DNA from: Candidatus Omnitrophota bacterium
GTDB lineage: Bacteria; Omnitrophota; Gorgyraeia; Duberdicusellales; 4484-171
Direction: 5' to 3'
Assembly (NCBI GenBank): GCA_041652815.1
Contig: JBAZGN010000005.1
Span: 8,615 to 72,614, forward strand
Length of the DNA: 64,000 bases
Position 1 is the stretch's first letter, and every line of letters starts with the position of its first letter. The notes beneath the pieces are model-generated. The model did no database searches. It was not told the DNA's origin and saw nothing but the letters and a program-made list of their open reading frames with translations. Below are positions 5,801 through 64,000 of this stretch, in pieces. The translations under genes were made by a program, and so were the position numbers.

Positions 5801-5816
5801 AAAAAAGGGGGTTTTC

Positions 5817-7272: not shown

Positions 7273-7288
7273 TAAAAAAGGAGTGAAT

Positions 7289-7630: not shown

Positions 7631-7672
7631 TTTTTCAGCTAAAAAGCGTATAAATAAGGAGATTTTTTATTT

Positions 7673-8935: not shown

Positions 8936-9329
8936 TGAGCACGTTGTTTCTGCAAGCGTTTAGCACGAAGTAAAAACAACAGTGCGGATTGACCCCGCAC
9001 CGACCTTGTTCTGGTGCAGGGTTATGTCGAATTCATAAATTTTCCAATGAATGATAATTTTTCCAATTTTCTTGATCCGATTGCAAAAGTCTGGAACAAC
9101 CAACAAGTATTACCTTATGCCTTGTCTATGCCAAAAGCAAAAATAGATAAGAAAATAAAGCCTTTTAAACGAAATCAGCCTCAAATCCAAGGTTTAAGCC
9201 CGACGAAAAAAGTTAAAACAAAAATAATTTTAAAAAAAGGTTACCAAGCAGGCTAAATCTTTACTTATATAGTAAAGGGTTAGAACTATAACCAGAGAAG
9301 CACAAGGTTTGTGCAAAAGCTATTAAAAC

Positions 9330-9372
9330 AAGGGTGTTTTAAGGCTATCAGAGCTTAAAACACCCTTTTTTT
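9330..9372 (+). terminator. Intrinsic terminator upstream of glnA
   Basis: AGGGTGTTTTAAG...CTTAAAACACCCT stem followed by TTTTTTT. Confidence 0.55.
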
Positions 9373-9399
9373 ATAACAAAAACATTAAAGGAGGTTGAA

Positions 9400-10731: not shown

Positions 10732-10740
10732 GAAACTACG

Positions 10741-11448: not shown

Positions 11449-11529
11449 GCGTATAGGTTTTTTTGGAAAAGGTTGCATAAAATTTAGGCATAAATTGCCA
11501 GTGTTTAAGGAGGTTCATTAGCCCACAAT

Positions 11530-11763
11530 ATGGAACCGGATAAAATTGTAGATGAAATTTATAATTCTTTTTTAATCGGCAACGACGGAAAGGTTTATGC
11601 AAACACTATTGAATATATAGAAAAAATTATCATTGAAAAGGTACTTGAAAGAAGCTTCGGCAATCAATTCAGGGCAGCAAAGATTTTAGGGATTAATCGT
11701 AATACTTTACGTTCCAAAATAAAGAAATTGAATATAGACGCAAGTAGGTGGAAAGGTTATTGA
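11530..11763 (+). CDS. Standalone Fis-type helix-turn-helix DNA-binding protein
   Basis: 77 aa. C-terminal AAKILGINRNTLRSKIKKLNI matches the Fis/NtrC-C-terminal HTH. RBS taaggaggttcatta. Confidence 0.5.
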   Translation: MEPDKIVDEIYNSFLIGNDGKVYANTIEYIEKIIIEKVLERSFGNQFRAAKILGINRNTLRSKIKKLNIDASRWKGY

Positions 11764-11981
11764 TAGCTAATGAATAAAACTCTAAACCCTAAACTCGAAA
11801 CTCTAAACAAACTCGAAATCACAATGTTCCAAATCCTAAACGTTTCGAGTTTGGGATTTCGAGTTTGTAGTTTGTTTAGGATTTTCCGCCAGAGGCCCTC
11901 GGCTTCGCCGAGAGGCGAGCGGATCCGCCCACATATAAAAAATATATCGGTGGCGGAAGTGTTTAGAGTTTTAGGGTTTAA
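11764..11981. repeat. Compound palindromic repeat region containing copy 2 of the TTCCGCCAGAGGC...GGATCCGCCCACATAT...GTGGCGGAA core
   Basis: Terminal inverted repeats AAAACTCTAAACCCTAAA / TTTAGGGTTTAGAGTTTT-like. Internal AACTCGAAAC/GTTTCGAGTT reiterations. The core is near-identical to 7201-7250 with a 24-nt internal duplication. Both track ORFs here, 11757..12089(-) and 11770..11994(+), are spurious. Confidence 0.6.
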
Positions 11982-11983
11982 AT

Positions 11984-16513: not shown

Positions 16514-16600
16514 GCGTTACACGTAACAAGTATCACGTAACACGTTTAAAAAAAGACGCGATACTTGTTACATGATACGTGTTACTTAATAAAGGAAAAG
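16514..16600. repeat. Palindromic GTAAC/CACGT-rich element (member of the GTATCACGTAAC-termini family) between gltB and gltD
   Basis: GTTACACGTAAC, GTAACAAGTATC...GATACTTGTTAC inverted pair, GTATCACGTAACACG. It shares terminal motifs with the elements at 23552-23662 and 50333-50461. Confidence 0.6.
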
Positions 16601-18064
16601 ATGGGTGATGTAAAAGGTTTTCTAAAAGTTAGGCGCCAAACAGCGAAATACAGGCCGGTTTGCGTGCGCGTAAAAGACTACCGTGAAGTGGCAATGCCGC
16701 GCTCTGATGAGGCTATGAAAGAGCAGGCATCGCGTTGTATGGACTGCGGAACTCCTTTTTGCCATTGGGGTTGCCCTCTGGGAAATTATATTCCCGAGTG
16801 GAATGACGCAGTTTTTCGCGGCCGATGGAAGAAAGCCTTTCAATTGCTTGAGGCAAGCAATAATTTTCCCGAATTTACCGGAAGGCTTTGCCCCGCGCTT
16901 TGTGAGTATGCTTGTATTTTGGGAATAAATGATGACCCGGTAACTATAAAAGAGAATGAATTGACGATTATTGAATATGCTTTTGATGCTGGTTTTATCC
17001 GGGCAAATCCGCCTAAAGTTCGTACCGGAAAAAAAATTGCTGTTATCGGTTCCGGCCCGTCCGGGCTTGCTTGCGCCAACCAGTTGAATAAAGCTGGGCA
17101 TAAGATAACGGTTTTTGAAAAGGATGACAAAATAGGAGGTATTTTACGCTACGGTATCCCGGATTTTAAACTTGAAAAGTGGCTCATTGACCGGCGGGTT
17201 AACCTGCTTGAGAAAGAGGGTATTGAATTTAAAACCAATGTGAATGCCGGCATAGGCTATAAAGCCTCAAAACTTAAAAAAGAATTTGATGCCATTGTGC
17301 TTACCGCTGGTTCCCGTGTTCCCCGTGACCTTAATATTGAAGGCCGAAAGCTCAACGGTATATATTTCGCTATGGATTATTTAATCCAGTCAAACAGAAG
17401 AGTTGCCAAAGAAAAAATACCCGTTAATAAGTTAATCGATGCCAAAGGAAAAAAAGTTGTTGTTATCGGCGGAGGAGATACCGGCGCTGATTGTGTCGGC
17501 ACGGCGAACCGGCAAGGCGCAAGCTGTGTGGTGCAAATTGAAATTATGCCAAAGCCTGAAGAATGCCGTACCAAAGAATACCCGTGGCCAAAATACCCGT
17601 TGATTTTAAGAACTTCTACTAGCCACGAAGAAGGAAGCGAGCGCCAGTGGAGCATTCTTACTAAAAAATTTATCGGTGAGAATGGTAAACTTGAGAAATT
17701 ATCTTGTGTCCGTGCCGAATTTATAAACGAACAACGAACAGCGAACGACAAACGGCAAGCTTGTCCGGTAATGCGCGAAATCCCTGGTTCTGAATTCGAG
17801 ATTAGCGCCGATATGGTCTTGCTGGCAATGGGTTTTGTGCATCCCGAACATTCAAAACTGCTTACAGATTTAGGCGTAGAACTGGATAAACGCGGCAATA
17901 TAAAAACAGATGCAAATTATATGACTTCCAATGAGAAAGTATTTTCTGCAGGAGACGCCAGAAGCGGCCAGTCATTAATTGTACGGGCTATTGCAGAAGG
18001 CAGGCAGGCTGCTTTCTGTGTTGATAAATATCTTATGGGCGAAAGTAGTTTGTCTATTATATAA
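16601..18064 (+). CDS. gltD: Glutamate synthase small subunit (NADPH)
   Basis: Fe-S cluster cysteines CMDCGTPFC and CPLGN; FAD/NAD Rossmann motifs GSGPSGLACA and VIGGGDTGADC. I moved the start to the ATG at 16601 (RBS aaaggaaaag). The track start lies inside the repeat. Confidence 0.9.
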   Translation: MGDVKGFLKVRRQTAKYRPVCVRVKDYREVAMPRSDEAMKEQASRCMDCGTPFCHWGCPLGNYIPEWNDAVFRGRWKKAFQLLEASNNFPEFTGRLCPALCEYACILGINDDPVTIKENELTIIEYAFDAGFIRANPPKVRTGKKIAVIGSGPSGLACANQLNKAGHKITVFEKDDKIGGILRYGIPDFKLEKWLIDRRVNLLEKEGIEFKTNVNAGIGYKASKLKKEFDAIVLTAGSRVPRDLNIEGRKLNGIYFAMDYLIQSNRRVAKEKIPVNKLIDAKGKKVVVIGGGDTGADCVGTANRQGASCVVQIEIMPKPEECRTKEYPWPKYPLILRTSTSHEEGSERQWSILTKKFIGENGKLEKLSCVRAEFINEQRTANDKRQACPVMREIPGSEFEISADMVLLAMGFVHPEHSKLLTDLGVELDKRGNIKTDANYMTSNEKVFSAGDARSGQSLIVRAIAEGRQAAFCVDKYLMGESSLSII

Positions 18065-50128: not shown

Positions 50129-50280
50129 ATATTTAATAATACGGTAATATCCGGCAGCATCATTTAGGTGCTTATATTTGGGGGAAGGTATAGTATCCTG
50201 ATTGGAAAAATCAATCAGGATTTTTGTTTTTAGATAGGTAAAGAGATTAATTGACACAATAAAAAAATATGCTAAGCTGT

Positions 50281-50298
50281 TATGAACATATGTTCATA
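50281..50298. promoter_or_regulatory. Perfect 18-bp palindrome TATGAACATATGTTCATA (candidate operator)
   Basis: Self-complementary. Lies about 190 nt upstream of the first gene of the arsenic cluster. Confidence 0.4.
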
Positions 50299-50332
50299 AC
50301 AAACGTTACCTATATCTTATCTTTTGAAATAT

Positions 50333-50461
50333 GTATCACATAACACGTATCCTCGCCACCATATAAAAATATTTAGGCGAGTCCACTTGGAGTGGAGGTA
50401 GCACGTCACGTAATCATTAGAGGATGAAAAAACATAATACCTGTTGCCTGCGACGTGATAC
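50333..50461. repeat. MITE/REP-like element with inverted termini GTATCAC(A/G)TAACACG ... CGACGTGATAC
   Basis: The core 50345-50410 is about 80% identical to the reverse complement of 23589-23652. Contains hairpins CTCGCC-loop-GGCGAG and CCACT-TGG-AGTGG. Confidence 0.55.
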
Positions 50462-50489
50462 TTAACCAATATGAGGTATATTAAAATTT

Positions 50490-50795
50490 ATGAGGCCTAA
50501 AAAAACAAGATGGGTTAAGTGCGAGCCTGGGGAGAGGTGTTTTAAGCCGGTATGTAAACCTTTAAACAGGCTTACGTGTGTGTGTTTAACTTTGGATGAG
50601 TTTGAAGCCATAAGATTAGCTGACCTTGAGGAGTTAAAGCAGATTGATGCGGCTAAAAAACTAAAAATATCGCGGCCGACATTCTCGAGGATTATATCGT
50701 CTGCACACAGCAAGATTGCTGATGGATTGGTTAATATCAAAGCCATTAGAATTGGCGGTGGTTGCTGCAAGATTGGCGGAAGGAGTAAGAAATGA
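50490..50795 (+). CDS. DUF134 (UPF0251) family putative DNA-binding protein, Cys-rich
   Basis: 101 aa. Central sigma-region-4-like HTH (LTLDEFEAIRLADLEELKQIDAAKKLKISRPTFSRII). N-terminal Cys cluster C11/C17/C22/C30/C32 and C-terminal GGGCC. First gene of the ars cluster. Confidence 0.6.
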   Translation: MRPKKTRWVKCEPGERCFKPVCKPLNRLTCVCLTLDEFEAIRLADLEELKQIDAAKKLKISRPTFSRIISSAHSKIADGLVNIKAIRIGGGCCKIGGRSKK

Positions 50796-51997
50796 AGGAG
50801 TGGAAAAAGTTTCTTTATATCTTAGCCATATTCTTAGGATGTTTTTATCTGCCGGTAGAGAATTTACGATTTACCCTGCTAGAAAATAATTTTCTAACGG
50901 GGTTTACCAATGCTATCCTTGAAGCTCTTGCTCTTGTTAAATGGTATGCCCGGGAGCATGTTATTTTGTGCCTTGTCCCGGCATTCTTTATCGCAGGAGC
51001 CATTTCGGTATTTGTCAGCCAGGCATCAGTCATAAAATATTTTGGCGCAAAAGCTAATAAATTTCTTTCATATGCTGTTGCTTCGATATCAGGAACTATC
51101 CTTGCCGTGTGTTCCTGTACGGTGCTCCCGTTATTTTCCGGTATATACAAACGCGGCGCAGGCCTGGGCCCCGCGATTGCTTTCCTATATTCCGGTCCTG
51201 CCATAAATATTTTGGCTGTTATTCTAACGGCACGTATTCTTGGCTGGCAATTGGGGTTGGCAAGAGCCATAGGTGCTATTATGTTTAGCGTTGTAATCGG
51301 CTTATTAATGCATCTCATTTTTTTAAAGGAAGAACGAGAACGTCATGCCACCGGTGATTTTAATGTAGGTGAGATAAAAGAAACCCGTTCTTTGGGTAAA
51401 ACAGTTCTATATTTTGCTTCAATGGTTGCGTTTCTTGTTTTTGCTAACTGGGGTAAACCCCTTGAAGGTGACTATGGGATATGGACTTTGGTGTATCAAT
51501 ATAAATGGTGGATAGCTGGTTTTTCATTTATCAGTTTACTGGTTATGATTTTTAAATGGTTCAAAAAGGATGAATTAAAGGAATGGACTTCTGCAACCTG
51601 GGGCTTTGCTTTACAAATCCTGCCGCTTTTATTGGGCGGCGTGCTCATTTCCGGATTTCTATTGGGCCGAGTTGGCCATGAGGGCGTTATTCCTTCCAGT
51701 TTTATAGAGGCACTTGTCGGAGGCAATTCTTTGCGGGCAAATTTCTTTTCTTCGATTGTTGCGGCGTTTATGTATTTCGCTACTCTTACTGAAGTGCCGA
51801 TTTTACAAGGATTAATTGGTTCAGGTATGGGCAAAGGTCCGGCGCTTGCGCTTCTTCTGGCCGGGCCCGCATTGAGTTTGCCTAGTATGCTTGTAATTAG
51901 AAGTGTCATTGGTACAAAAAAAACAGTTATATATGTTTCTTTGGTTGTTATCATGGCTACAGTTACGGGAATGATTTTTGGTTTTATTGCCGGTTAA
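50792..51997 (+). CDS. arsP: ArsP-like permease (DUF318 family)
   Basis: 401 aa polytopic. Conserved CSC motif in a TM segment (AVCSCTVLPLFSG), as in organoarsenical efflux permease ArsP. Confidence 0.65.
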   Translation: MKEWKKFLYILAIFLGCFYLPVENLRFTLLENNFLTGFTNAILEALALVKWYAREHVILCLVPAFFIAGAISVFVSQASVIKYFGAKANKFLSYAVASISGTILAVCSCTVLPLFSGIYKRGAGLGPAIAFLYSGPAINILAVILTARILGWQLGLARAIGAIMFSVVIGLLMHLIFLKEERERHATGDFNVGEIKETRSLGKTVLYFASMVAFLVFANWGKPLEGDYGIWTLVYQYKWWIAGFSFISLLVMIFKWFKKDELKEWTSATWGFALQILPLLLGGVLISGFLLGRVGHEGVIPSSFIEALVGGNSLRANFFSSIVAAFMYFATLTEVPILQGLIGSGMGKGPALALLLAGPALSLPSMLVIRSVIGTKKTVIYVSLVVIMATVTGMIFGFIAG

Positions 51998-52021
51998 GTT
52001 AAACGAAAAGGGAGTTATAAG

Positions 52022-52855
52022 ATGAAAAAAGATACAAAAAATATTAAAGACGTGGTTAAAAAAGGTTATGCCAAAATTGCAGTTAATGAAGTTTCGTGTT
52101 GTTCTGGAGGTTCGTGTTGTCCAGGCATAGCGCAAGCTAAAGATATAAGCAAGATTGTCGGTTATACTGATAAAGAAATGAATGTAGTTCCTGATGGTGC
52201 TAATTTAGGCCTTGGCTGTGGAAATCCTGTGGCTATCGTATCTTTGAAAGAAGGTGAGGTTGTGCTTGATCTGGGCAGCGGTGCTGGATTTGATGCTTTT
52301 CTTGCTTCCCCTAAAGTAGGCAAGACTGGACGTATTATTGGCGTTGATATGACTTCTGAAATGATTAAAAAAGCGCGTACGAATGCTAAAAAAGGAAACT
52401 ATACAAACGTTGAATTCAGGCTTGGCGAGATTGAAAAGCTTCCGGTTGAAAATAATTCAATTGATGTAATTATTTCAAACTGCGTGATCAATCTTTCTCC
52501 GGATAAAGAAAGTGTTTTTAGCGAAGCTTTTAGGGTTTTAAGGCCGGGCGGAAGGCTTATGGTTTCAGATCTTGTTTTGGTAAAGGAGCTGCCGGCAATT
52601 ATTAAAGATTCTGTTGAGGCTTATGTGGGCTGTCTTGCCGGAGCGATTATGAAGGATGAATACTTGGAATATATCAAGGAAGCCGGGTTTAAAAACGTAG
52701 ATGTTGTAAGCGAGACTAATTATCCTATTGAGGCGATGGCGAATGATATCACCGCACAGATTGTCAAAAGTAATCCCGGCATAAAACAGAAAGACCTGCA
52801 AGGCGTTGAAAGTTCAGTAGTAAGTATTAAGGTTAGTGCGTTAAAACCTAAATAA
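52022..52855 (+). CDS. arsM: Arsenite S-adenosylmethionine methyltransferase
   Basis: Near-colinear with ArsM as I recall it: LGLGCGNP, VLDLGSGAGFD, IGVDMTSEM, DVIISNCVINLSPDK, AFRVLRPGGR, VGCLAGA. N-terminal Cys pairs CCSGGSCC. Confidence 0.9.
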   Translation: MKKDTKNIKDVVKKGYAKIAVNEVSCCSGGSCCPGIAQAKDISKIVGYTDKEMNVVPDGANLGLGCGNPVAIVSLKEGEVVLDLGSGAGFDAFLASPKVGKTGRIIGVDMTSEMIKKARTNAKKGNYTNVEFRLGEIEKLPVENNSIDVIISNCVINLSPDKESVFSEAFRVLRPGGRLMVSDLVLVKELPAIIKDSVEAYVGCLAGAIMKDEYLEYIKEAGFKNVDVVSETNYPIEAMANDITAQIVKSNPGIKQKDLQGVESSVVSIKVSALKPK

Positions 52856-52868
52856 GAGGAAGGAAATT

Positions 52869-53102
52869 ATGAAAATTGAAATATTGGGAGTGGGCTGCTC
52901 TAAATGTAGGCAATTAACTGCAAACGCGGAAATGGCGCTTAAAGAGCTTAGTATTTGTGGGGACATTTCAAAAGTAACGGATATTGGAAAAATTACCGAA
53001 TACGGCGTGATGATGACACCGGCGCTTGCAATCGATGGCAAAGTGGTTTCTTCAGGCAAGGTATTGACGAAGGATGAGATAAAAAAATTAATAGCCGGAT
53101 AA
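52869..53102 (+). CDS. Small thioredoxin-fold protein (redox-active disulfide protein 2 family)
   Basis: 77 aa. CxxC as GCSKC near the N-terminus. Typical small Trx-like gene of anaerobe ars operons. Confidence 0.6.
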   Translation: MKIEILGVGCSKCRQLTANAEMALKELSICGDISKVTDIGKITEYGVMMTPALAIDGKVVSSGKVLTKDEIKKLIAG

Positions 53103-53112
53103 GGAGAGCTGT

Positions 53113-53529
53113 ATGCGCAAGAAAACATTGTTGGTTCTGTTTATGCTTGGATTCATCACAGTTTATTTTGCCGCCGATAAGCCATCAGATAGCAAAGTAA
53201 CAGCATATTATTTTCACGGAAACTATCGCTGTTCTACCTGTCGTAAACTTGAACAGTATTCCAAGGAAGCGATAGAATCAAATTTCAAAAACGAGCTTGC
53301 TTTGGGGAAATTGGCTTTTATTGCAGTTAATATTGATGAAAAAGGTAATGAACATTTCGTGAAAGATTACCAGCTTTATACAAAGTCCCTTGTATTGTCT
53401 TTGGTCAAAGATGGCAAAGAGATAAAATCAAAAAATCTTACTAAGATATGGGAGTATGTTCGTGATAAACAAAAATTCTTTGATTACATCAACGAAGAGG
53501 TAAATAATTTCTTAAAGGAAGCGCAATGA
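53113..53529 (+). CDS. Secreted thioredoxin-like protein (CxxC = CSTC), probable partner of CcdA
   Basis: 138 aa. Signal peptide plus YYFHGNYRCSTCRKLE. Overlaps ccdA by 4 nt. Confidence 0.5.
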   Translation: MRKKTLLVLFMLGFITVYFAADKPSDSKVTAYYFHGNYRCSTCRKLEQYSKEAIESNFKNELALGKLAFIAVNIDEKGNEHFVKDYQLYTKSLVLSLVKDGKEIKSKNLTKIWEYVRDKQKFFDYINEEVNNFLKEAQ

Positions 53530-54218
53530 CAGATATTTTGATTACTTTTGGCTCGGCATTATGGCTTGGGGTATTAACCTCAATAAGCCCTTGTCCTTTG
53601 GCTACCAACGTAGCAGCCATATCGTTCTTAGCAAAAAAGATAACTCATCCATTTTTTGTTTTACTCTCCGGAATCGCCTATACCGTGGGTAGAATGGCTA
53701 CCTATGCGATACTAGGATTTATACTCATCAATTCAATATTGAGCATCCCGCAGGTGGCGCAGTTTTTGCAAAAATATATGACCAAAGCCCTTGGGCCCAT
53801 TCTGATTGTTACGGGATTAATTTTACTTGATGTAATTAAGATAAACTTTACGGGATTATCGCTTTCCCAAAAGCATCACAGCAAACTTGTTGAAGCAGGT
53901 GTTCTGGGAGCATTTTTATTAGGAGCGATATTCGCTCTCGCGTTTTGTCCGGTATCAGCAGCTCTTTTCTTCGGCAGCCTCATTCCGTTTGCGCTTCAGT
54001 CTAAGTTTGGGGCAATACTACCTTTTATTTATGGAATCGGCACAGGGCTTCCGGTATTAATGTTTACTATCGCCATTGCCGCAGGCATTACTTCGTTAAG
54101 TCACTGGTTTCATAGGCTTGCAAAATTGGAATATTATATGCGAAAAGTTACTGGCGTTATTTTTATTCTTGTCGGTATTTATTACCTGGCATTAAATCTT
54201 TTGAAAGTTGGAGGTTAA
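53526..54218 (+). CDS. ccdA: CcdA/DsbD-family thiol-disulfide transporter membrane protein
   Basis: 230 aa, 6 TM. Conserved Cys in TM1 (SPCPLAT) and TM4 (AFCPVS). Confidence 0.8.
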
Positions 54219-54220
54219 TA

Positions 54221-55267
54221 ATGAAGGAAGCCATAACAAAAAAAATGTCTTTTTTTGATCGTTATCTTACTTTATGGATATTCTTGGCAATGGCAATTGG
54301 AGTCGTGTCCGGGTATCTCTATCCGCAGATTGTAAATTTTTGGAATCAATTCCAGGTTGGTACAACCAACATTCCTATCGCTATCGGCTTGATTCTAATG
54401 ATGTATCCGCCGCTGGCAAAAGTGAAATATGAAGAATTAGGCGATGTGTTTCGCGATTTTAGGGTCTTGGGATTATCTTTGGTTCAGAACTGGATTATAG
54501 GTCCGGTTTTGATGTTTTTATTAGCGATAGTTTTTTTACGCGGCTATCCCGAATATATGATTGGTCTGATTATGATTGGCCTGGCGCGATGCATTGCTAT
54601 GGTTATTGTTTGGAATGATTTAGCCCGAGGAGATACTGAATATTGTGCCGGCCTTGTTGCTTTTAATTCTATTTTTCAGGTATTATTCTACTCTGTTTAT
54701 GCTTGGGTGTTTATCACAATCTTGCCCGCCTGGTTCGGCCTAAAGGGGAAGACAGTTAATATTACAATGGTGCAAATAGCCCACAGCGTTTTTGTCTACT
54801 TAGGTATACCTTTTTTAGCTGGAATTATCACGCGCCTCGCCCTTATTAAAATAAAAAATAAAGAGTGGTATGAAAATAAATTTATCCCGGCAATAAGCCC
54901 GATAACCTTGATTGCCTTATTGTTTACTATCGTGGTAATGTTTTCGCTTAAGGGTGAGTATATCGTAAAAATTCCCTTGGATGTAATTCGTATTGCTATA
55001 CCGCTTCTGATTTATTTCATAGTGATGTTTTTGATTTCATTCTATATGGGAAAGAAGTTTAATGCCGGTTACGCTAAAACAGCAACGCTATCTTTTACCG
55101 CCGCAAGCAACAACTTCGAATTGGCGATTGCGGTTGCGGTAGCTGTATTCGGAATAAACTCCGGCGCAGCATTTGCCGCGGTTATTGGGCCTTTAGTTGA
55201 GGTTCCCGTTCTTATTGGTCTTGTAAATGTTTCGCTCTATTTTAAGAGGAAGTATTTCGATGGATAG
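54221..55267 (+). CDS. acr3: Arsenite efflux transporter ACR3 family
   Basis: 348 aa. [48 protein letters not shown]. Confidence 0.9.
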
Positions 55268-55679
55268 GAAGAAAGTTTTATTTATTTGCGTACATAATTC
55301 TGGCCGCAGCCAAATGGCTGAAGCGTTTTTAAAGCAAATGGCAGGGGACAGGTTTGAAGTAGAAAGCGCAGGGCTTGAGCCCGGTGCACTAAATCCTTTA
55401 ATTGTTGAAGTAATGAAAGAAATAGGCATAGATATTTCTCAAAATAAAACTAAAAGCGTTTTTGATTTTTACAGGCAAGGCAAACAATATGACTATGTAA
55501 TCACTGTTTGCGGCCAGTCGCAGGCTGCTAAATGCCCGGTTTTTCCCGGGGCTGTTCAACAGCTACACTGGGGATTTGATGACCCTTCGGCTTTTAAGGG
55601 AAGCTGGCAAGAGAAACTGGAAAAAACAAGACAAGTGAGAGATGAGATTAAGCAAAAGATTAAGGAATGGATAAAGTGA
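55260..55679 (+). CDS. arsC: Thioredoxin-coupled arsenate reductase (LMW-PTP type)
   Basis: [14 protein letters not shown]-loop, Cys pair [15 protein letters not shown] moved the start to the ATG at 55260 (MDRKK), overlapping the acr3 stop by 8 nt. Confidence 0.85.
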
Positions 55680-55755: not shown

Positions 55756-55841
55756 TAATTAATTGGATTAGAATTCTTAAGCCGTAGAGGGAACTAGCCT
55801 TTACGGTTTTTTTCTTTAGCTAACTTTTGTTTAAAAATAAC

Positions 55842-57092
55842 ATGGATAAAAAACCTAATATAAACAATTTTCCTCAAGGAATTAATCAGCCAGAATCCGG
55901 TTTTTATGGTTTGGGTATTGCGCCTAAAATTTTAGATATACTTCAACGGATGAGATTTAAGGCGCCAACGCCGATACAAATGAAGGCTATACCTTTGGGT
56001 ATTCAAGGCAAAGATATTATCGGCGTAGCGCAAACAGGTACAGGGAAAACCCATTCATTTGCCATACCTATGGTGCAGAGGCTTGCTCAGGAAAAAGGAA
56101 CGGGTTTGGTGCTTGCGCCAACAAGGGAATTGGCTATCCAGATAGATGATGCATTTAGAATGCTCGCGCATGCTTTTGGTATGTATACAGTTTGTCTTAT
56201 CGGAGGTGCTCCAATGCAGCCTCAGATACAGAAACTGCGTAGAAATCCTCGTATTGTAATAGCCACTCCGGGAAGGCTTATTGACCATATATGGCAAGGC
56301 AATGCATCTGTGGATTATGTTTCAATGCTCGTTCTTGATGAAGCAGACCGCATGCTTGATATGGGATTTGCTCCACAAATTGAACAAATTTTACGTTTCC
56401 TGCCGCGTAACAGGCAAACGATGCTTTTTTCCGCAACTATTCCCAAAGAAATTATGGATATCACTTCCAAATATATGAAGCTTCCTGTTAGCGTAGAAAT
56501 TGCTCCTTCCGGAACTACTGCCGAGCGCGTTACCCAGGAAGTATTTATTGTAAGGCGCGAAGCTAAATTAACTCTTCTTAGCAGGATACTTGCTCAATAT
56601 CGCGGAGCAGTACTTTTATTCTCGCGCACCAAGCATAATGCCGGAAGAATTGTGAAGAGCATAAGGGATATGGGTTATAGAGCGGCTGAAATACACTCCG
56701 ACCGAAGCCTTGGCCAACGGCGCGAAGCGCTTGAAGGCTTTAAATCCGGTAAATATAAAGTGCTTGTTGCAACAGATATCGCGGCAAGAGGAATTGATGT
56801 AACCGGCATTGAGTTGGTTATCAATTTTGATTTACCTGACGATGCGCAAAATTATGTGCATCGTATCGGACGCACAGCGCGTGCCGGCCACCCCGGCCAT
56901 GCAATTTCTTTTGCAACACCTGACCAAGGCCAGGATGTGCATGCCATAGAGAAGCTTATAAGGGCGACACTCCCTATCTCAAAACACCCGCAAATTCCTT
57001 CGGAGCAATTTGTCCAAAGCCCTCCTAATCATCAAGCCCGCCACTTTAGGCGTGGTTTTGACCGTAACCGCCACAGGCCGCGCAAATTTTAG
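55842..57092 (+). CDS. DEAD-box ATP-dependent RNA helicase
   Basis: Q-motif region, Walker A AQTGTGKT, PTRELA, DEAD (VLDEAD), SAT, HRIGRTARAG. Basic R/H-rich tail. I prefer the ATG at 55842 to the track TTG at 55827. Confidence 0.9.
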   Translation: MDKKPNINNFPQGINQPESGFYGLGIAPKILDILQRMRFKAPTPIQMKAIPLGIQGKDIIGVAQTGTGKTHSFAIPMVQRLAQEKGTGLVLAPTRELAIQIDDAFRMLAHAFGMYTVCLIGGAPMQPQIQKLRRNPRIVIATPGRLIDHIWQGNASVDYVSMLVLDEADRMLDMGFAPQIEQILRFLPRNRQTMLFSATIPKEIMDITSKYMKLPVSVEIAPSGTTAERVTQEVFIVRREAKLTLLSRILAQYRGAVLLFSRTKHNAGRIVKSIRDMGYRAAEIHSDRSLGQRREALEGFKSGKYKVLVATDIAARGIDVTGIELVINFDLPDDAQNYVHRIGRTARAGHPGHAISFATPDQGQDVHAIEKLIRATLPISKHPQIPSEQFVQSPPNHQARHFRRGFDRNRHRPRKF

Positions 57093-57283: not shown

Positions 57284-60200
57284 ATGATTCCATTTCTTAT
57301 ATTACTTATGATCGGTGGCGTTGGTGCAGGGCTTTATGTGCTTTTATCTCCTTCTGGAGAAAAAGGTAAAGTTCCGGATATACAAAAAGAAGATTATGAA
57401 GCAACCATTAGAAGGCTTCAGGATAAAATAAGTTCTCTTAAGGAGAATGTTTCTTCGCTGAATACAAAACTAAAAAAAACCGATGAAAGTATAAAGAGCC
57501 TTGAAAAACAACTGCAGGCGCAGGAGAAAGAAAAAGCTGAGCTGGAAAAAATCATAGAGAAGCAGAAAAAATGGGAGGAATTAGGGACTAAAGATACGGG
57601 AAAAATAAAACAGCAGGCGATGGAATTTAAGGATAAGCTTCAGGAGAAAGAGAAAGAATTAGAGAAAAAGTTTTCAGAAAATGTAAAGCTGACGAGAGAA
57701 ATAAAAGAGTTAAGCGATAATATAGAGTCTCTTACTAAAAGCAATAACGAAAAAGAAGAGGAAATAAGAGTATTAAAATTTAAATTAAAGGATTATCTTT
57801 CGAAACTGCAGGAGCAGACAAAAACAACGCACGGTTTAAAAAGAAAGCTGGAGCAAAGCGATTGGGTAACGAAAGATGAGTACAAAGAGCTAAAAGGAAA
57901 CTTTGATTCGTTGGAGAAGGAAATAGAGGAGAAGAAAAAAATATTATTGGCCAAAGATGAGCGGCTTAACGAATTAGAAGCAAAAGTGCATCAATTAAAT
58001 GCTCAATTGACAGCTAAAGCAAAAGAAGTTCCGTCTAAGGATGCTTTACCTGAAGAAGGGGCTGATAAGAGTGTAGCAGGGCCTGCCGAGCAAGTTGAGC
58101 CGAAGCTTCTTGAGTCTACGCCTGAACCAAGTAAGGCTTTAGAGGCAACTTCTGAGAGCCTACCTACGCAACCGCAACCAGCGCTACAACCAGAAGCTGT
58201 TGAGGCGCCTCAGTTGGAAAATCCGATAAAGGAAGAAATCGAAACCAAGCCTAGCGAAGAAGCGCCGGTGGATTTGTCCGTTGAGCCAACACCAGAGCAA
58301 CCAGAAGAAAAAATAGATTTATCTGTAGACCTTAGCAAGGTAAGGAATATAGGTATTATGGCGCATATTGACGCCGGAAAAACCACACTTACGGAACGCC
58401 TGCTTTTTTATACAGGAAAGATCCACAAAGTTGGTGAAGTCCATGATGGTAAAGCAACTATGGATTGGATGAAGCAGGAACGCGAGCGCGGTATCACCAT
58501 AACTGCAGCTGCAACTACCTGTTTCTGGCTTGATACGCGAATCAATGTTATCGACACCCCGGGACACGTTGATTTTACCGCTGAGGTTGAACGAAGTCTG
58601 CGCGTCCTTGACGGTGCGGTTGTAGTGTTTTGCGCGGTTGGAGGAGTTGAAGCGCAGTCAGAAACTGTGTGGAGGCAATCCGATAAATACCATGTTTCAA
58701 AAATGGTATTTGTAAATAAAATGGACCGTCTCGGAGCTGATTTTTACAAGGTTCTGGGTGAAATAGAAGAAAAACTAGCAGCTAACGCAGTACCGGTAGA
58801 AATCCCTATCGGCGCGGAAGCTGAATTTAAAGGTGTGATTGATTTAATAGAAATGAAATCCTACATGTATGGTACGGACGAAGATGTGAAAAAAGTAGCT
58901 GCAGAGGATATACCTTCGGAGTATTTGGAAATTGCAAAAAAATGGCGGCATAATTTATTGGAGAAGGCTTGCTCTTTGGACGAATCCTTGGCGGATAAAT
59001 ATTTGAAAGATGAAAGTTCGGTAACCGAGGAAGAATTAAAATCAGCCATAAGAAAAGCTACTATTGCCAATAAAATTATTCCTATGCTTTGCGGCTCAGC
59101 GCTAAAAAATAAGGGGTTACAAAAGCTTCTGGATGGGGTAACATTTTATCTGCCTTCTCCGGTAGACCTTCCAGCGGTTATCGGGCATGACCCAAAGGAT
59201 AGCAGTAGCATAATTAAAGTTTCTCCTTCTGTGAATGAGCCTTTTGCCGCTCTTGCTTTTAAAATACAGTCAGACCCGCATGTTGGTAAGCTTGTATATT
59301 TCAGAGTATATTCTGGTTATCTTGCGGCTGGCTCATATATTTTAAACAGCACCAAAAATAAAAAAGAAAGAGTGGGAAGGCTTTTGCAAATGCACGCAAA
59401 TCAGAAAGAAAACAGAAGCTCTATTTGTGCGGGCGATATCGGCGCGGCAGTGGGCCTAGGTTCAACTGTAACCGGAGACACACTCTGCGCAGAAACACGC
59501 CCGGTAATCTTAGAAGCTATAGAATTTCCTGAGCCGGTAGTTTCCATAAGCATAAAACCAAAGACAAGGCAGGACCAGGATAGATTAGGCAAAGCCATAA
59601 TGAAACTTGTAGAAGAAGACCCGACTTTTGCTTTTGAAACCGATGAAGAGACGAATGAAATCCTTCTCTCGGGGATGGGAGAATTGCATTTGGAAATTAT
59701 GGTAGACAGATTAAAGGAGGAGTTTAATGTCCAGGCAGAAGTAAGCCCTCCTAAGGTTGCTTATAAAGAAACCATTCTAAAAGCAGTGACAGGTGAATAT
59801 AAACATATAAAGCAAACAGGAGGACATGGCCAGTATGGCCATGTAGTTATAGAATTTTCTCCTAACGAAAAAGGCAAAGGCTTTATTTTTGAGACTAAAA
59901 TAAAAGGCGGAGCAATACCGCAAAATTTTATACCTTCAATAGAAAAAGGCTTAAAGGAAGTTATGAAAAAAAGCGTATATGCGGGATATCCCGCCGTAGA
60001 TATAAAGGCAACATTGCTTGATGGTTCTTTCCACGAGGTTGATTCTTCGGATATAGCTTTCAGGCTTGCAGCCATGGGTTGTTTTAGGGAAACTTTTCCA
60101 AAGGCAGATCCCGTGCTCATTGAGCCTTATATGCGTATTGAGGTTCTGACCCCCGAAGAATATTTAAGCAGTATCGTGGGTTATATATGCTCTAAGAGAG

Positions 60201-60418
60201 GCAAGATTATAAATATAGAAGACAAAAGTAATCAAAAACTCGTCATATCAGAAGCTCCGCTTTCGGAAATGTTCGGCTATTCCCAGATTTTCCGCTCGCT
60301 TTCCAGCGGCCGCGCAACTTTTGCGATGGAATTTTCAAAATACGAGCCGCTCCCTTCGAACTTAGCAGAAAAAATTGTCGCAGAAAAAAAGAAAGAGAGA
60401 GAAGAACAGAACAAATAG
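57284..60418 (+). CDS. Membrane-anchored coiled-coil::EF-G fusion (N-terminal TM helix, ~230-aa coiled coil, Pro/Glu/Ala-rich linker, complete EF-G-like GTPase domains I-V)
   Basis: 1044 aa. [21 protein letters not shown] is a TM helix. Residues ~30-250 form heptad-rich K/E repeats. From ~345 on: [28 protein letters not shown], and the domain-IV loop GSFHEVDSS, diagnostic of EF-G-type translocases. Confidence 0.85.
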
Positions 60419-60458
60419 AGATTTGACCTGCCTATTTTGAATAAACAATCAATTTCTA

Positions 60459-60531
60459 TGAATTTCGCAAAGCAAATCTCAATTAATTTCAATTGAGATT
60501 GATAGAAATTTGTAGAAATTGATAGAAATTT
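60459..60531. repeat. AT-rich iteron-like repeats: AATTTCTAT inverted versus 2x TTGATAGAAATTT plus GTAGAAATT
   Basis: CAATTTCTATGAATTT ... ATTGATAGAAATTTGTAGAAATTGATAGAAATTTATCG. Lies in a ~350-bp AT-rich spacer. Confidence 0.45.
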
Positions 60532-60766
60532 ATCGTCGCGATCTTGACAAAAATATATTTTTGAATATAATTTTATTTCCGTTATGGTTTGGAAAATTTT
60601 TTCTTCTAAAGCATTAGAATATAAATAATTGTCTTCATACAACTCTTACAGTAAAAATATTCTTCTGCTTGATAAGATTCTAAAAATTTTCTACAGCCTA
60701 GTAATTTAATATTAAAAATTTAAGCTTGCGGCTATAATTTTATAAATAACCGCAAAAAGGCAGGTT

Positions 60767-61048
60767 GTGATGTCTTGGTTTAAACTTTCCTGGCTGTGTA
60801 GAATTTTCGGCCATCATTTTGTATTAATTAGAGATTTACGGATAAGCCTTAAAAGAGAAAGGCTTATCTACAGGTGCGTAAGATGCAACCACCCGGTGAT
60901 AATAAGGCAATCTGAGCACAGAAGGTTTGAACGCCGCAATAAGGTTGACAGAAGGAATGCGTTTCGCGGTCAATATGACAGGCGGCAATACGAAAGAAGG
61001 GGCGTTTACGTTTCGGGGCATGATATGCCGCACCTTTTGGGTAGATAA
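60767..61048 (+). CDS. Hypothetical small Cys/His plus Arg-repeat protein, 93 aa
   Basis: C-x4-HH ... C-x2-C, then (D/E)RR repeats (RRFERRNKVDRRNAFRGQYDRRQYERRG). No clear RBS. The coding status is uncertain. Confidence 0.3.
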   Translation: MMSWFKLSWLCRIFGHHFVLIRDLRISLKRERLIYRCVRCNHPVIIRQSEHRRFERRNKVDRRNAFRGQYDRRQYERRGVYVSGHDMPHLLGR

Positions 61049-61248
61049 AACATAAATCCAGCCAAATAACTGCAATTCCAAAGCCATAACCAGCGTTTTC
61101 TGTTTTTTCTCAAAGATGCCAAATTGCCGCTTGTAATTCATTTATAAAATGCTATTATATTTACGGTTTTAGGGTGTTTACTTAAAAAACGGCTTATCGC
61201 TTGTAAGGTAATATTATGGGTGTAAAGCTTACAAGAAAGGAGGTTTTT

Positions 61249-61692
61249 ATGAGTAAGGTGAAGTCGGAATTAATAATAATGCTTAATAAAGCTCTTGAAC
61301 TGGAACATGCGGCAAGGATACAGTATCTTGCTCACGCAGAACTTATCAGCGGCATCAATGCAGAAAAAATTATCGAGCGTCTCAAAGAAATAGCATCAGA
61401 CGAAGAAAAGCATGAGGGAAAATTCCGTGGATTAATCGGCGATTATCTTGGCGGAGAACCAGTGATGAGCCTTGCAGAAACCCATAAGGCAAAAGATTTG
61501 AAAAAGATATTAGATGTAAATCTTAAAGGCGAAAAAGACGCGATTGATTTTTACAAACAAATTTACCAAAAGGTCATTGAGAATAAAGAAGAATTTCAGT
61601 ATCAATTTGAAACTCTTGAGCATGAAATACGGCATGTAATAATAGATGAGCAAGAGCATGTGACCGAGTTAGAATTGTTATTAGGAAAATAA
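61249..61692 (+). CDS. Ferritin-like diiron-carboxylate protein
   Basis: 147 aa. Repeated E-x-x-H motifs (ELEHAA, EEKHEG, LEHEIRH, EQEHV). I moved the start to the ATG at 61249 with RBS aaggaggtttttATG. An inverted repeat CTTGTAAG...CTTACAAG lies immediately upstream. Confidence 0.7.
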   Translation: MSKVKSELIIMLNKALELEHAARIQYLAHAELISGINAEKIIERLKEIASDEEKHEGKFRGLIGDYLGGEPVMSLAETHKAKDLKKILDVNLKGEKDAIDFYKQIYQKVIENKEEFQYQFETLEHEIRHVIIDEQEHVTELELLLGK

Positions 61693-61779
61693 ATATTTAA
61701 AAGCTATCAGCTGTCAGCCTTCTGCTCTCAGCTGAAAGCTGAAGACTGAAAGCTGATGGCTTTTCGAAAGGAGATAAAT

Positions 61780-62175
61780 ATGCCTGACTTTAAAGACCTA
61801 TTCCAAAGCGCTGACTGGAAAGCCGAGAAACATGTCCCGGCAATTGAATCACCGGAAAAAGCGAAAAAGGGGGAGTTTTTTAAGGTAGCCGTTAGCGTGG
61901 GCAAGGAAATTGCTCACCCAAACAAAACAGAACACCATATCCGCTGGATTGACATATTTTTTCATCCAAAAGGAGAAAAATTTCCTTACCAGATAGCAAA
62001 AGTAGAATTTAATGCTCATGGCGAATCTGTCCAGGGGCCAGATACAAGTTCAATATACACACACCACGAAACTGTCGTAAGTTTCAAAACGGAAAAGCCA
62101 GGCACTATTTTCGCTTCAAGTTATTGCAATATCCATGGTTTATGGCAGGCTTCAAAAGAGATTGATGTTGAATAA
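61780..62175 (+). CDS. sor: Superoxide reductase (1Fe-SOR / neelaredoxin-type)
   Basis: KHVP motif, His ligands (HPNKTEHHIRWI), and C-x2-H (CNIHGLW). Start at the ATG at 61780 with RBS aaggagataaatATG. Confidence 0.85.
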   Translation: MPDFKDLFQSADWKAEKHVPAIESPEKAKKGEFFKVAVSVGKEIAHPNKTEHHIRWIDIFFHPKGEKFPYQIAKVEFNAHGESVQGPDTSSIYTHHETVVSFKTEKPGTIFASSYCNIHGLWQASKEIDVE

Positions 62176-62456
62176 ATTATACACGCAAACTTCATTTTTT
62201 GACGAATATCAATTTTTTTAGCTGCGATAGGTTCTCTTATATAAATCAGTACTGTAAGAAATAAAATAATATTGCGTAACATTTAGCGCAATCTCTGCCT
62301 CGGCAATAAACTAACCACTTGGGGCTTTAGCGTCTGCTTCCTTGAATAGCACCTCACGAAATGGCTGGTTACGCTTACTGTGATTCTCTTGTGTTTAAAT
62401 AAACTTATCGATTAGCGCTTTACAGCCTGGAATAAAGGGTATTATAATAAAATAAT

Positions 62457-64000
62457 ATGTTTTCAGAGCTTACAATAAAAATTGCCGGAGAAGCCGGCCA
62501 GGGAATGCAAACCGTTGGTTTAAACCTATGCAGGCTTTTTAAGTGTATTGGTTTTTATGTTTTTGCTAATCAGGATTATATGTCACGCGTGCGCGGCGGA
62601 AATAATTTTTTTCAATTACGCATAGCAAATAAACCGCTTTATGCCTTAAGGAAAAACAGCGATATAATCGTAGCGTTAGATGAGCCTAGCGTAGGGATGC
62701 ATAAGCCAACGCTTAATAAGGATGGAATAATAATTATAGACAGGAAAAAAAATAACATCGCCCAAGAGAGCCCGTTTGTAGATATTCCTATGCATGAAAT
62801 AGCAAAGAATCTGGGGAATGAAATATTTGTTAATTCCGTAGCTTACGGTGCTATAGGAAGTATTGTCGGCGCAGAGATAGATTGTATGATTGAAATCATT
62901 CAAAAGAATTTTTCTGCTAAAAATGCAGATGTAATTGCAAAGAACATAGAAGCGGTAAAGGCAGGGTATATGTTTGCCAAAGATAACATAAAGGAAGAGC
63001 GACTTAAGATAAAACAAAACAAAAATAAAAAAACAATGCTTCTAAACGGTAACGAAGCAATTGCCCTGGCAGCCGTACGCTCAGGGTGTAAATTTTATTC
63101 AGCTTACCCAATGACGCCTTCAACAAGTATAATGAATGAAATGGCAGCTTATTCAGGGCAATTCAATATTATCGTAGAACAGGCTGAAGATGAGATTGCC
63201 GCAGTAAATATGGCAATTGGAGCTTCATTTGCCGGCGCACGTTCAATGACAGCTACTTCAGGAGGCGGATTTTGTCTGATGGTTGAGGGGGTCAGCCTTT
63301 CGGCAATGACAGAGACCCCGGTTGTAATAGTGGATGCCCAGCGTCCCGCGCCTGCTACGGGTTTTCCTACACGCACAGAACAGGCAGACCTTCTTTTTGT
63401 GCTCCAGGCCGGCCATGGAGAGTTTGCCAAGGCAATTTTTTCTCCGGGTACAGCCGAAGAAACTTTTTATATTACGATGCGTGCGTTTAATCTGGCTGAA
63501 AAATACCAAATACCTGTATTTATTATGACTGACCAGTATCTCGCTGACTCTTACCGCAACATTGATATGTTTAATTGGGATACTGTTAAAGTAGAGAGGT
63601 CGATTATCCCCAAAGAATTATCAAAAAAAATATCCGGTTATAAAAGATATGAATTTAACGAAAATGGTATATCGCCCCGTGCGATACCTTCCTGGATAAA
63701 CGGTGTGGTTTATGCCGACAGCGATGAGCATACTGAAGAGGGGCATATTACGGAAGATGCTTCAATACGCATAAAAATGGTTGAAAAAAGAATGCATAAA
63801 AAAATGCGGGGTTTGATGGAGGAAGCAATAAAACCAAATACTTTTAATATAGAAAAAGCACAAATAGTGCTGATAGGATTCGGTTCAACGTATGGTGTTC
63901 TTCGCGAAATTTGCGAAGTTTATCCTGACAAGTTTGGTTTTATACATTTTCCTCAAGTATGGCCGTTGCCTGCGGATAGCGTGGTTAAATTCTTGAGAGA
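62457..64000 (+). CDS. 2-oxoacid:ferredoxin oxidoreductase, fused gamma-alpha subunit (KorA/VorA-like); 3' partial at window end
   Basis: N-terminal gamma domain (IAGEAGQGMQTVG...ANQDYMSRVRGG). Then the alpha subunit N-terminus (LNGNEAIALAAVRSGCKFYSAYPMTPST) and the TPP-binding region. The ORF stays open to position 64000. It is absent from the track because it has no in-window stop. Confidence 0.8.
   Translation, partial: MFSELTIKIAGEAGQGMQTVGLNLCRLFKCIGFYVFANQDYMSRVRGGNNFFQLRIANKPLYALRKNSDIIVALDEPSVGMHKPTLNKDGIIIIDRKKNNIAQESPFVDIPMHEIAKNLGNEIFVNSVAYGAIGSIVGAEIDCMIEIIQKNFSAKNADVIAKNIEAVKAGYMFAKDNIKEERLKIKQNKNKKTMLLNGNEAIALAAVRSGCKFYSAYPMTPSTSIMNEMAAYSGQFNIIVEQAEDEIAAVNMAIGASFAGARSMTATSGGGFCLMVEGVSLSAMTETPVVIVDAQRPAPATGFPTRTEQADLLFVLQAGHGEFAKAIFSPGTAEETFYITMRAFNLAEKYQIPVFIMTDQYLADSYRNIDMFNWDTVKVERSIIPKELSKKISGYKRYEFNENGISPRAIPSWINGVVYADSDEHTEEGHITEDASIRIKMVEKRMHKKMRGLMEEAIKPNTFNIEKAQIVLIGFGSTYGVLREICEVYPDKFGFIHFPQVWPLPADSVVKFLR

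Follow-up and report, generated by a model that had tools for sequence, protein, structure and literature searches.

A predicted membrane-anchored elongation factor G with a coiled-coil stalk, conserved beside a soluble paralogue in Omnitrophota

Elongation factor G (EF-G) is the textbook case of a freely diffusing translation factor. Specialised paralogues of it are known, among them EF-G2 of Thermus, the EF-G2 proteins that serve recycling in spirochaetes and mitochondria, and the EF-G1A/1B pair of Pseudomonas. Here, we describe an EF-G of a different build, encoded in a 64,000-nucleotide stretch of DNA from a Candidatus Omnitrophota bacterium (assembly GCA_041652815.1, contig JBAZGN010000005.1, positions 8,615 to 72,614 of the forward strand; hereafter “the window”, to whose first letter positions refer). 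The gene in question, 57284..60418 on the plus strand, encodes a complete EF-G preceded by a predicted transmembrane (TM) helix, a long coiled-coil stalk and a disordered acidic linker. We call proteins of this build the long form, and soluble EF-Gs of ordinary length the short form. What is new is the conserved membrane-tethered architecture; the enzyme itself, EF-G, is known.

How does this protein compare with the closest described systems? Against canonical EF-G (the fusA product, e.g. that of Thermus thermophilus, PDB 1dar and 1efg), residues 346-1036 align end to end at 843 bits, but the long form has 345 extra N-terminal residues, lies outside the str operon and coexists with one or more soluble paralogues. 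It resembles the specialised paralogues in being a duplicate kept beside a further EF-G, and such retention implies a division of labour. Their catalytic bodies diverge, however, whereas that of the long form is nearly unchanged, and any division would thus be one of place and not of chemistry. The layout of a short N-terminal anchor, a helical spacer and a cytoplasmic domain recalls RNase Y and EzrA of Firmicutes, in which an N-terminal TM helix is followed by a coiled coil and a cytoplasmic functional domain that works, at the membrane, on RNA or on protein machinery, although the sequences are unrelated and the payload of the long form is a translation factor. A polypeptide fused to the N-terminus of EF-G has a counterpart in the L9-EF-G chimeras of the PDB (4wpo, 4wqf and others), where the partner lies N-terminal and EF-G starts at chain residue 68; unlike the long form these are artificial, with no natural counterpart known, and are joined to a ribosomal protein instead of a membrane. 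Since such chimeras exist, in what we take to be ribosome complexes, N-terminal attachment need not block ribosome binding. Lastly, YqjD, ElaB and YgaM are reported to be small C-tail-anchored proteins that block the exit tunnel and inactivate ribosomes (bioRxiv 10.1101/2024.08.16.608256). They share with the long form, as predicted from its sequence, a single TM anchor and a helical dimerising region that would join ribosome and membrane; the long form is instead anchored N-terminally, carries a full GTPase translocase and has no Pfam match to their family.

The window gene and its parts are laid out as follows.

57284..60418, plus strand: whole gene, anchored EF-G paralogue; a single open reading frame (ORF) with an ATG start, 1044 amino acids plus stop.
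57287..57346, plus strand: TM helix, residues 2-21, predicted to be an N-out/C-in signal-anchor (AlphaFold2 helix with a predicted local distance difference test score, pLDDT, of ~80; hydropathy).
57347..57394, plus strand: juxtamembrane K/R-rich segment, residues 22-37, predicted to be disordered (pLDDT below 50 for residues 22-38; K/R enrichment in the family).
57395..57856, plus strand: predicted coiled-coil helix 1, residues 38-191 (a single 154-residue AlphaFold2 helix, pLDDT 74-87; heptad period).
57857..57874, plus strand: kink motif SDWVTK, residues 192-197 (conservation; AlphaFold2 helix break at 192-196).
57872..58018, plus strand: predicted coiled-coil helix 2, residues 197-245 (AlphaFold2 helix; period 3.55, power 41.9; invariant L203).
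58019..58318, plus strand: acidic Glu/Pro/Ala-rich linker, residues 246-345, predicted to be disordered (pLDDT ~30 for residues 247-340; composition).
58319..59158, plus strand: EF-G domain I, the G domain with G' insert, residues 346-625 (PF00009 at 352-625, E 1.6e-65; G1-G5 motifs as in the canonical consensus).
59159..59518, plus strand: EF-G domain II, residues 626-745 (PF22042 and PF03144 at 653-736).
59519..59749, plus strand: EF-G domain III, residues 746-822 (PF14492 at 748-821).
59750..60109, plus strand: EF-G domain IV with both tip loops (PF03764 at 823-941; GGHGQYGH at 846-853 and HEVDSS at 917-922, kept in the long clade).
60110..60415, plus strand: EF-G domain V and C-terminal helix, residues 943-1044 (PF00679 at 945-1030; carries the clade-fixed K985).

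By every profile applied to it, the C-terminal part is a canonical EF-G and not EF-G2, Tet(M), BipA, LepA or RF3. The EF-G equivalog model TIGR00484 matches residues 347-1036 over model positions 4-690 of 691 and scores 1006.4 bits against a cutoff of 659.4, whereas the models of related GTPases all stay below their own cutoffs: the EF-G2 and EF-G-like models NF009377 (498 bits against 890) and NF058620 (484 against 1000), the Tet ribosomal protection model NF012153 (401.5 against 775), BipA/TypA (209 against 757), LepA (185 against 534) and RF3 (254 against 473). The five Pfam domains of EF-G occur in order (PF00009, PF22042/PF03144, PF14492, PF03764, PF00679), and the fold is confidently predicted (pLDDT ~90 in the AlphaFold2 model). 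A PDB search returned as closest solved structures the canonical EF-Gs of Thermus, Staphylococcus and E. coli (843-820 bits); it gave no match to residues 1-341. All of the motifs G1 to G5 are present, including G1 AHIDAGKT (360-367), DTPGH (424-428), NKMD (478-481) and G5 GSALKNKG. Across the clade, D424-H428, with the catalytic His of DTPGH, are invariant, while G5 is kept as the canonical consensus without being residue-identical. The domain IV tip loops GG(R/H)GQYGH and H(E)VDSS are likewise conserved, with G846, G847, G849-H853, H917 and V919-S922 invariant. The initial annotation, made from the letters of this stretch, had seen in the C-terminal ~700 residues an EF-G with all its hallmarks; that assignment holds, and the prospect it raised of a non-EF-G GTPase found no support in the EF-G2, Tet and BipA scores.

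The EF-G body of the long form has, moreover, changed very little since its separation from the short form. Where 154 long and 35 short EF-Gs were compared, 229 columns reach 90% conservation or more in each of the two sets, and in every one of these columns both sets have the same residue. Between 111 long and 116 short Omnitrophota sequences, the latter forming the sister clade, there are no insertions or deletions and only two fixed differences, with His replaced by Arg at position 555 (G domain) and Gln by Lys at position 985 (domain V) in the long form. Sequences of the long clade share a mean pairwise identity of 0.70 and those of the short clade one of 0.77; pairs taken across the two clades average 0.67. 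Against two close relatives (loci L007 and L008), the EF-G part has a nonsynonymous divergence (dN) of 0.04 and a dN/dS of 0.03-0.04. By sequence, the long form is thus an ordinary EF-G plus a tether, which argues against a decayed or repurposed GTPase. A catalytic specialisation of the long form was considered and dropped, H555R and Q985K being too little from which to deduce a changed activity.

The remaining 345 residues make up the tether. The window protein was modelled in AlphaFold2 from an alignment of 76 full-length homologues (mean pLDDT 78.5), and the TM helix and its topology were read from this model together with hydropathy and charge bias. The Kyte-Doolittle mean is 2.26 at residues 4-22 of the window protein, and in nearly all full-length homologues there is a hydrophobic N-terminal helix that starts at residues 1-9 and averages 2.0-3.4 over 19 residues. 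Across the family, the 20 residues after the helix hold a mean of 4.5 K/R and the net charge before it is ~0, from which, by the positive-inside rule at family level and by functional logic, we infer an N-out/C-in topology. In helix 1 (residues 38-191), the family-averaged hydrophobicity has a period of 3.50 with a power of 106.5, against a mean of 5.6 and a maximum of 32 in 500 shuffles; because this periodicity far exceeds the shuffles, the coiled-coil reading is statistically supported. W97, K122 and FSENV (130-134; EFSKNV in the family) are conserved in helix 1 across sequences that are only ~50% identical overall. At the kink, S192 (95%), W194 (95%) and K197 (91%) stand out within a family consensus of SEWVxKxEF that falls exactly at the predicted break, and L203 is invariant in the 76 sequences.

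The linker behaves differently from the stalk. Across the family, E accounts for 26% of it, P for 14%, A for 12% and K for 10%, and the net charge averages -0.16 per residue; its length, estimated from a motif-anchored definition, ranges from 0 to 130 residues with a median of 69. Only P328 reaches 70% conservation, and there is no conserved cleavage motif. Against L007 and L008, dN is 0.09-0.12 in the stalk, ~0.2 in the TM helix and 0.44-0.60 in the linker, compared with the 0.04 of EF-G; synonymous sites are saturated outside EF-G, and stalk and linker are compared by dN only. The linker thus keeps its composition while its sequence drifts freely. The three-part N-terminus described at the outset by the initial annotation (a TM anchor, a ~230-residue coiled coil and a Pro/Glu/Ala-rich linker within the first ~345 residues) was recovered, with a stalk of about 210-230 residues.

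Where does the anchor come from? No known family accounts for it, Pfam giving only sub-threshold coiled-coil noise and a PDB profile search only generic coiled coils. When residues 1-252 were searched against 1.84 billion representative proteins, 113 matches were returned, many of them fragments of long EF-G genes on short contigs. Others are complete stand-alone proteins of 209-240 residues, which align colinearly and nearly without gaps with anchor residues 1-230 (phmmer E 1e-5 to 1e-16). They share with the anchor the TM helix, the K/R flank, a conserved Trp, EFSxN(V/L)xL and the (S/T)xW(V/I)(S/A)KxEY kink, and end 25-30 residues after the kink motif, having neither linker nor EF-G. AlphaFold2 predicts for them (mean pLDDT 87) a TM helix at 2-20, a helix at 44-190, a kink at WVSK and a second helix at 196-213. 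Examples are MCX7661742.1 and A2Y00_00805 of Omnitrophica WOR_2 GWF2_43_52; all are from Omnitrophota, all are annotated as hypothetical, and none has a Pfam match above threshold. Because the anchor is homologous to and colinear with stand-alone proteins of the same predicted fold, the anchor is, by this homology, not a novel sequence but a member of a membrane coiled-coil family, and the long gene a fusion of such a pre-existing protein with an EF-G duplicate.

The stand-alone genes lie on contigs of up to 224 kb, packed tightly among other genes and repeatedly between a DUF3108 gene and the 5-enolpyruvylshikimate-3-phosphate synthase gene aroA (L088 3-1414; L091-L093 5233-8022). None was found in the window or adjoining EF-G genes among ~90 loci. 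In L087 and L091, an rRNA/tRNA SpoU methylase and an S4-domain pseudouridine synthase are encoded close to the stand-alone gene.

Could the long ORF be an artefact, that is, two genes fused through faulty sequencing or assembly, or a reading frame extended too far? The ~700-residue annotations of some homologues at NCBI might suggest so. Those entries, however, start at TTG, ATA or CTG, and in all three that were checked 329-380 open codons lie upstream, coding for the same three elements (TM helix, stalk and linker); a fourth start miscall (P0056) has 452 open codons upstream. In the window itself, the ORF listing shows no stop or frameshift within 57284..60418 (plus strand), all 1044 codons being open. 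By our own arithmetic, with ~6% of random codons being stops at the ~40% G+C of the window, the chance of 345 stop-free codons ahead of the G domain is ~1e-10. Homologues found by protein search cover 95-100% of the window protein at 50-87% identity, and the same unbroken ORF occurs in more than 100 independent assemblies (JGI, ENA, NCBI, Logan). The N-terminal part also has conserved motifs and a constrained dN. We regard the chance of an artefact as negligible, and the single continuous ORF read by the initial annotation, which had weighed a separate N-terminal gene split off by a frameshift or stop, stands. In L047 (81-443), the anchor region of a long EF-G gene is split off as an ORF of 121 codons, probably through a frameshift or sequencing error.

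The start codon deserves comment as well. The JGI call for the identical protein (P0001, 1036 residues) begins at Met9 (57308) and cuts into the TM helix; ATG 57284 is favoured, since the TM helices of homologues begin at residues 1-4. Truly short homologues among the top matches were looked for and rejected, all of those tested being start miscalls. The trimmed NCBI genes (L002, L003, L004 and L090, from GCA_028710385.1, GCA_023819285.1, GCA_028711575.1 and GCA_014729775.1) start at TTG, ATA, CTG or a late ATG, turning 1.0-1.4 kb of coding DNA into “intergenic” sequence. The NCBI pipeline shortens the long gene to fit the EF-G model, and so hides the architecture in the RefSeq and GenBank protein sets. 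In none of 44 long genes does an in-frame ATG lie in the 25 codons ahead of G1, and only three of the 44 have any start codon with a Shine-Dalgarno-like sequence in that region; an alternative soluble isoform from a conserved internal start is, on this count, not encoded.

The long form is widespread in one phylum. In a search of 5.8 billion proteins (JGI, ENA, NCBI and Logan assemblies), ~105 of the best 120 clusters were proteins of 990-1180 residues, and every named one among them was Candidatus Omnitrophica/Omnitrophota. Some long-form records are titled “uncultured Planctomycetales”, but the tree places the EF-G parts of these records within the long clade. Species-representative genomes were scanned with six exact peptide patterns, from which the best loci were listed, so that a missing second EF-G in a genome is uninformative. 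Of the best 80 loci, 44 are long forms, with 257-407 residues before G1 wherever the N-terminus lies within the contig; the other EF-Gs have ~10. In a neighbour-joining tree of the EF-G parts, a simple distance tree, the long forms make one clade, sister to the short soluble Omnitrophota EF-Gs, with other phyla outside. The anchored copy arose, on this tree, within or at the base of Omnitrophota, and the fusion, whose spread the initial annotation had left to be established, is conserved in many lineages of the phylum.

Long and short forms occur together. JBAZGZ01 carries a 1051-residue long form (L010) and a 702-residue short form (L052); JBAYMZ01 carries L012, which is 87% identical to the window protein and truncated at the end of its contig, and L054 (702 residues). 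The short genes L052 and L054 have 8-10 open codons, closed by a stop, before the matched region, and encode a canonical N-terminus. WJJJ01000022.1 holds a long form of 1151 residues (59022-62477) and a short one of 698 residues (50156-52252) on one strand, 7 kb apart and 65% identical; on L016 a long form of 1036 residues (from the first ATG) and a short one of 695 residues are 3 kb apart. As these two each carry both genes on a single contig, any doubt about binning is removed. The short paralogue is itself widespread, with at least 120 clusters at 72-95% identity to L052, mostly bearing Omnitrophota names. The question of whether such genomes also encode a canonical EF-G, raised initially for this locus, is answered for its relatives: those whose long forms are 72% and 87% identical also carry a 702-residue soluble EF-G. 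Because these are two members of its own subclade, a soluble EF-G is very likely to be encoded in the window's genome too.

Neither the long nor the short paralogue lies in a str operon. In an Omnitrophota-labelled metagenome-assembled genome, an rpoB-rpoC-rpsL-rpsG-fusA locus (L085 1190-12052) encodes an EF-G of 702 residues (TIGR00484, 1035 bits) that is ~54% identical to the EF-G part of the window protein and falls outside the long-plus-short Omnitrophota clade. S12-S7-EF-G-EF-Tu operons are reported on several complete Omnitrophota chromosomes (10.64898/2026.06.07.730766). The idea that the long form is the fusA of the str operon was rejected, since the phylum has another EF-G in that operon. 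Omnitrophota as a phylum may thus hold three EF-G-class genes.

In light of this architecture, what might the long form do? We favour, with modest confidence, the view that it has the normal catalytic activity of EF-G but would serve only ribosomes close to the membrane, the soluble paralogue or paralogues serving the rest of the cell. A duplicate of the soluble EF-G was fused, through the acidic Glu/Pro-rich linker, to the C-terminus of a membrane-anchored coiled-coil protein. Its one N-terminal helix would sit in the cytoplasmic membrane, with all else in the cytoplasm. The heptad-repeat stalk probably pairs, and at a rise of 0.15 nm per residue helix 1 would span ~23 nm and helix 2 ~7 nm. 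To this the 100-residue linker would contribute ~7-10 nm on average, or as much as ~36 nm if stretched. The EF-G head could then range ~30-40 nm from the membrane, with an upper limit of 60-70 nm, which would be enough to reach the factor-binding site of a membrane-docked ribosome. The initial annotation had pictured a ribosome-binding GTPase held at a fixed distance from the membrane; the tether stands, but the distance is softened by ~100 disordered residues. There, the tethered EF-G would perform GTP-dependent translocation and/or ribosome splitting dependent on ribosome recycling factor. The normal job of EF-G is the most likely one because the body keeps every catalytic and ribosome-contact motif.

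Several points weigh against an EF-G reserved for membrane-proximal ribosomes. Most Omnitrophota cells are ~0.2 um across (PMC10066038), and in such a cell most of the cytoplasm would lie within a 30-40 nm reach of the membrane, so that the spatial restriction and its selective benefit may be small or different. The benefit may instead lie in an assured supply of EF-G at the membrane, in a near two-dimensional search, or in coupling to a scaffold of the anchor family. The charge bias of the window protein itself is weak, its post-TM segment having only three K/R and a net charge of -2. The two fixed substitutions give no sign of whether translocation or recycling is the selected activity, and the soluble paralogue of the window's own genome is deduced from its relatives. 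No conserved neighbours tie the long gene to Sec, to the signal recognition particle or to YidC, contexts differing between lineages. A more ambitious version of the proposal, which we hold to be speculative and improbable, is a spatially partitioned translation, in which a probably dimeric tethered EF-G would serve ribosomes docked for very long at the membrane while making giant membrane or secreted proteins (10,000 to over 100,000 residues), the soluble EF-G would serve cytosolic translation, and stand-alone members of the anchor family could co-assemble as a scaffold.

Other roles for an anchored EF-G have to be weighed against one of ordinary activity at the membrane. It might serve mainly as a tether or store, holding idle or hibernating ribosomes while GDP-bound or stalled, with an outcome like that of YqjD, ElaB and YgaM. 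Membrane-tethered ribosome inactivators are described from other bacteria (bioRxiv 10.1101/2024.08.16.608256), a free-living Omnitrophota cell type with low ribosome content has been reported (PMC10066038), and a stalk that is probably dimeric, judged by its heptad periodicity, would offer two ribosome-binding heads. We nevertheless think this unlikely, though well short of negligible, for a passive role does not need the strict upkeep of the DTPGH His, of G4/G5 and of both domain IV loops as in the soluble paralogue; the dN/dS of ~0.03 and the lack of any match to the YqjD/ElaB family among the Pfam hits also speak against it. A different kind of store, and a further point against our preferred reading, would be a latent membrane-held pool of EF-G, from which a protease frees soluble EF-G on demand by cutting the exposed linker. 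Membrane storage has been proposed for LepA/EF4, the ~100-residue linker, predicted to be disordered and fast-evolving, would be accessible to proteases, and a gene for a membrane M48 metalloprotease lies beside the long or short EF-G gene in some loci. The cell, however, already encodes a soluble EF-G (65% identical on WJJJ01000022.1), the linker is without a conserved cleavage motif, and the M48 linkage is seen in one subclade, at three of the 33 long loci whose downstream flank is long enough, and upstream in one further case; we rate such a pool as distinctly improbable.

Two further explanations fare worse still. The EF-G fold could have been turned to a non-translational use, the GTPase acting on a target other than the ribosome at the membrane; for this there is nothing specific, only the general possibility that comes with an unusual location. 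All tested ribosome-contact elements are kept as in bona fide EF-G, the score is far above the equivalog cutoff, and function-changed paralogues such as Tet(M) and EF-G2 are far more divergent, which together make such a use very improbable. The protein might also be exported, the hydrophobic segment being a cleavable signal peptide, since that segment lies at the extreme N-terminus and small residues (SPS) follow just past it in the window protein. Yet a positive n-region is missing (net ~0) and the K/R cluster follows the core (a mean of 4.5 over 20 residues), which reverses the pattern of a signal peptide. Outside the cytoplasm, moreover, an enzyme that depends on GTP and ribosomes and is held by strong purifying selection would find no substrate. 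We consider export hardly conceivable.

The surroundings of the gene vary between lineages. In the window, a DEAD-box helicase gene lies upstream (55827-57092), co-directional and separated by a 191-bp gap with no predicted terminator; the linkage, for which the initial annotation had suggested possible co-transcription, is lineage-specific, not conserved, and carries no functional weight. A functional link to the helicase was dropped, the adjacency being absent in relatives, even in one at 81% identity, whose upstream genes encode a response regulator and a histidine kinase. Downstream of the window gene come a ferritin-like and then a desulfoferrodoxin gene, and other long-form genes neighbour those for SufBD and an H+-pyrophosphatase, or for MgsA and a peptidyl-prolyl isomerase. 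Rfam gave nothing meaningful for an RNA leader or riboswitch around the gene, and promoter and terminator scans gave counts no better than shuffles. A perfect sigma-70 consensus (TTGACA, 16 nt, TATAAT) is found at 60544-60571, 126 bp past the EF-G stop, and a 93-residue Arg-rich, Cys-containing ORF without a Pfam match at 60767-61048, within an 800-bp stretch up to the ferritin-like gene that is otherwise unannotated.

In one subclade, the long and short genes are linked, and a membrane M48 (HtpX/Ste24-type) metalloprotease gene adjoins one or the other (L003 3798-4415; L014 about 14224-15384; L016 14468-15703; L019 6088-7269; L089 3667-4932; L050 5158-6330). On L016 and WJJJ01000022.1, the long EF-G gene is followed at some distance by M48 and then directly by the short EF-G gene, an order that points to a local duplication in an ancestor. 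The M48 synteny, being confined to that subclade, was dropped as evidence of a wider functional link. Giant genes adjoin the long EF-G gene in two unrelated loci (L090 1-2920 and L006 13925-23126), with products of more than 5887 residues with Laminin_G_3 and beta-helix repeats and of more than 3371 residues with Methyltransf_28 and HATPase_c; this may be chance, Omnitrophota being rich in giant membrane proteins.

Farther from the EF-G gene, the window contains an arsenic-resistance-type cluster at ~50792-55679, with genes for an ArsP_1 permease, an S-adenosylmethionine methyltransferase, thioredoxin-like and DsbD-like proteins, an SBF/ACR3-type transporter (54221-55267) and a low-molecular-weight phosphatase/arsenate reductase (55227-55679), the last two overlapping by 41 bp. 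Trehalose-phosphatase and TreT-type trehalose synthase genes lie at 233-2919. A nitrogen-assimilation block at 5790-18064 comprises genes for an Amt ammonium transporter, an OmpL-like porin, glutamine synthetase and the large and small subunits of glutamate synthase.

The initial annotation knew of no anchored EF-G of this kind, and we likewise found no published EF-G with a TM anchor or coiled-coil extension in the open-access literature and bioRxiv. The main Omnitrophota survey makes no mention of elongation factors (PMC10066038), a 2026 preprint on complete genomes mentions EF-G only as str-operon cargo (10.64898/2026.06.07.730766), and a 2015 survey of translational GTPases has no mention of membrane, transmembrane or coiled coil. 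The trimming of the gene to ~700 residues at NCBI may explain why the architecture went unnoticed.

Our findings also bear on the spatial layout of bacterial translation. EF-G becomes the first partner assigned to a family of Omnitrophota membrane coiled-coil proteins that is otherwise uncharacterised. The long and short paralogues, differing almost only by the tether, amount to a natural experiment, and offer a handle on the spatial organisation of translation, notably in cells ~0.2 um across that have few ribosomes and enormous membrane proteins. If translation in these cells were indeed partitioned as outlined above, the long form would be the first natural bacterial core elongation factor to be compartmentalised by covalent membrane anchoring. 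A naturally tethered EF-G, with its catalytic body untouched and its soluble twin kept, suggests that the location of an elongation factor may itself be under selection.

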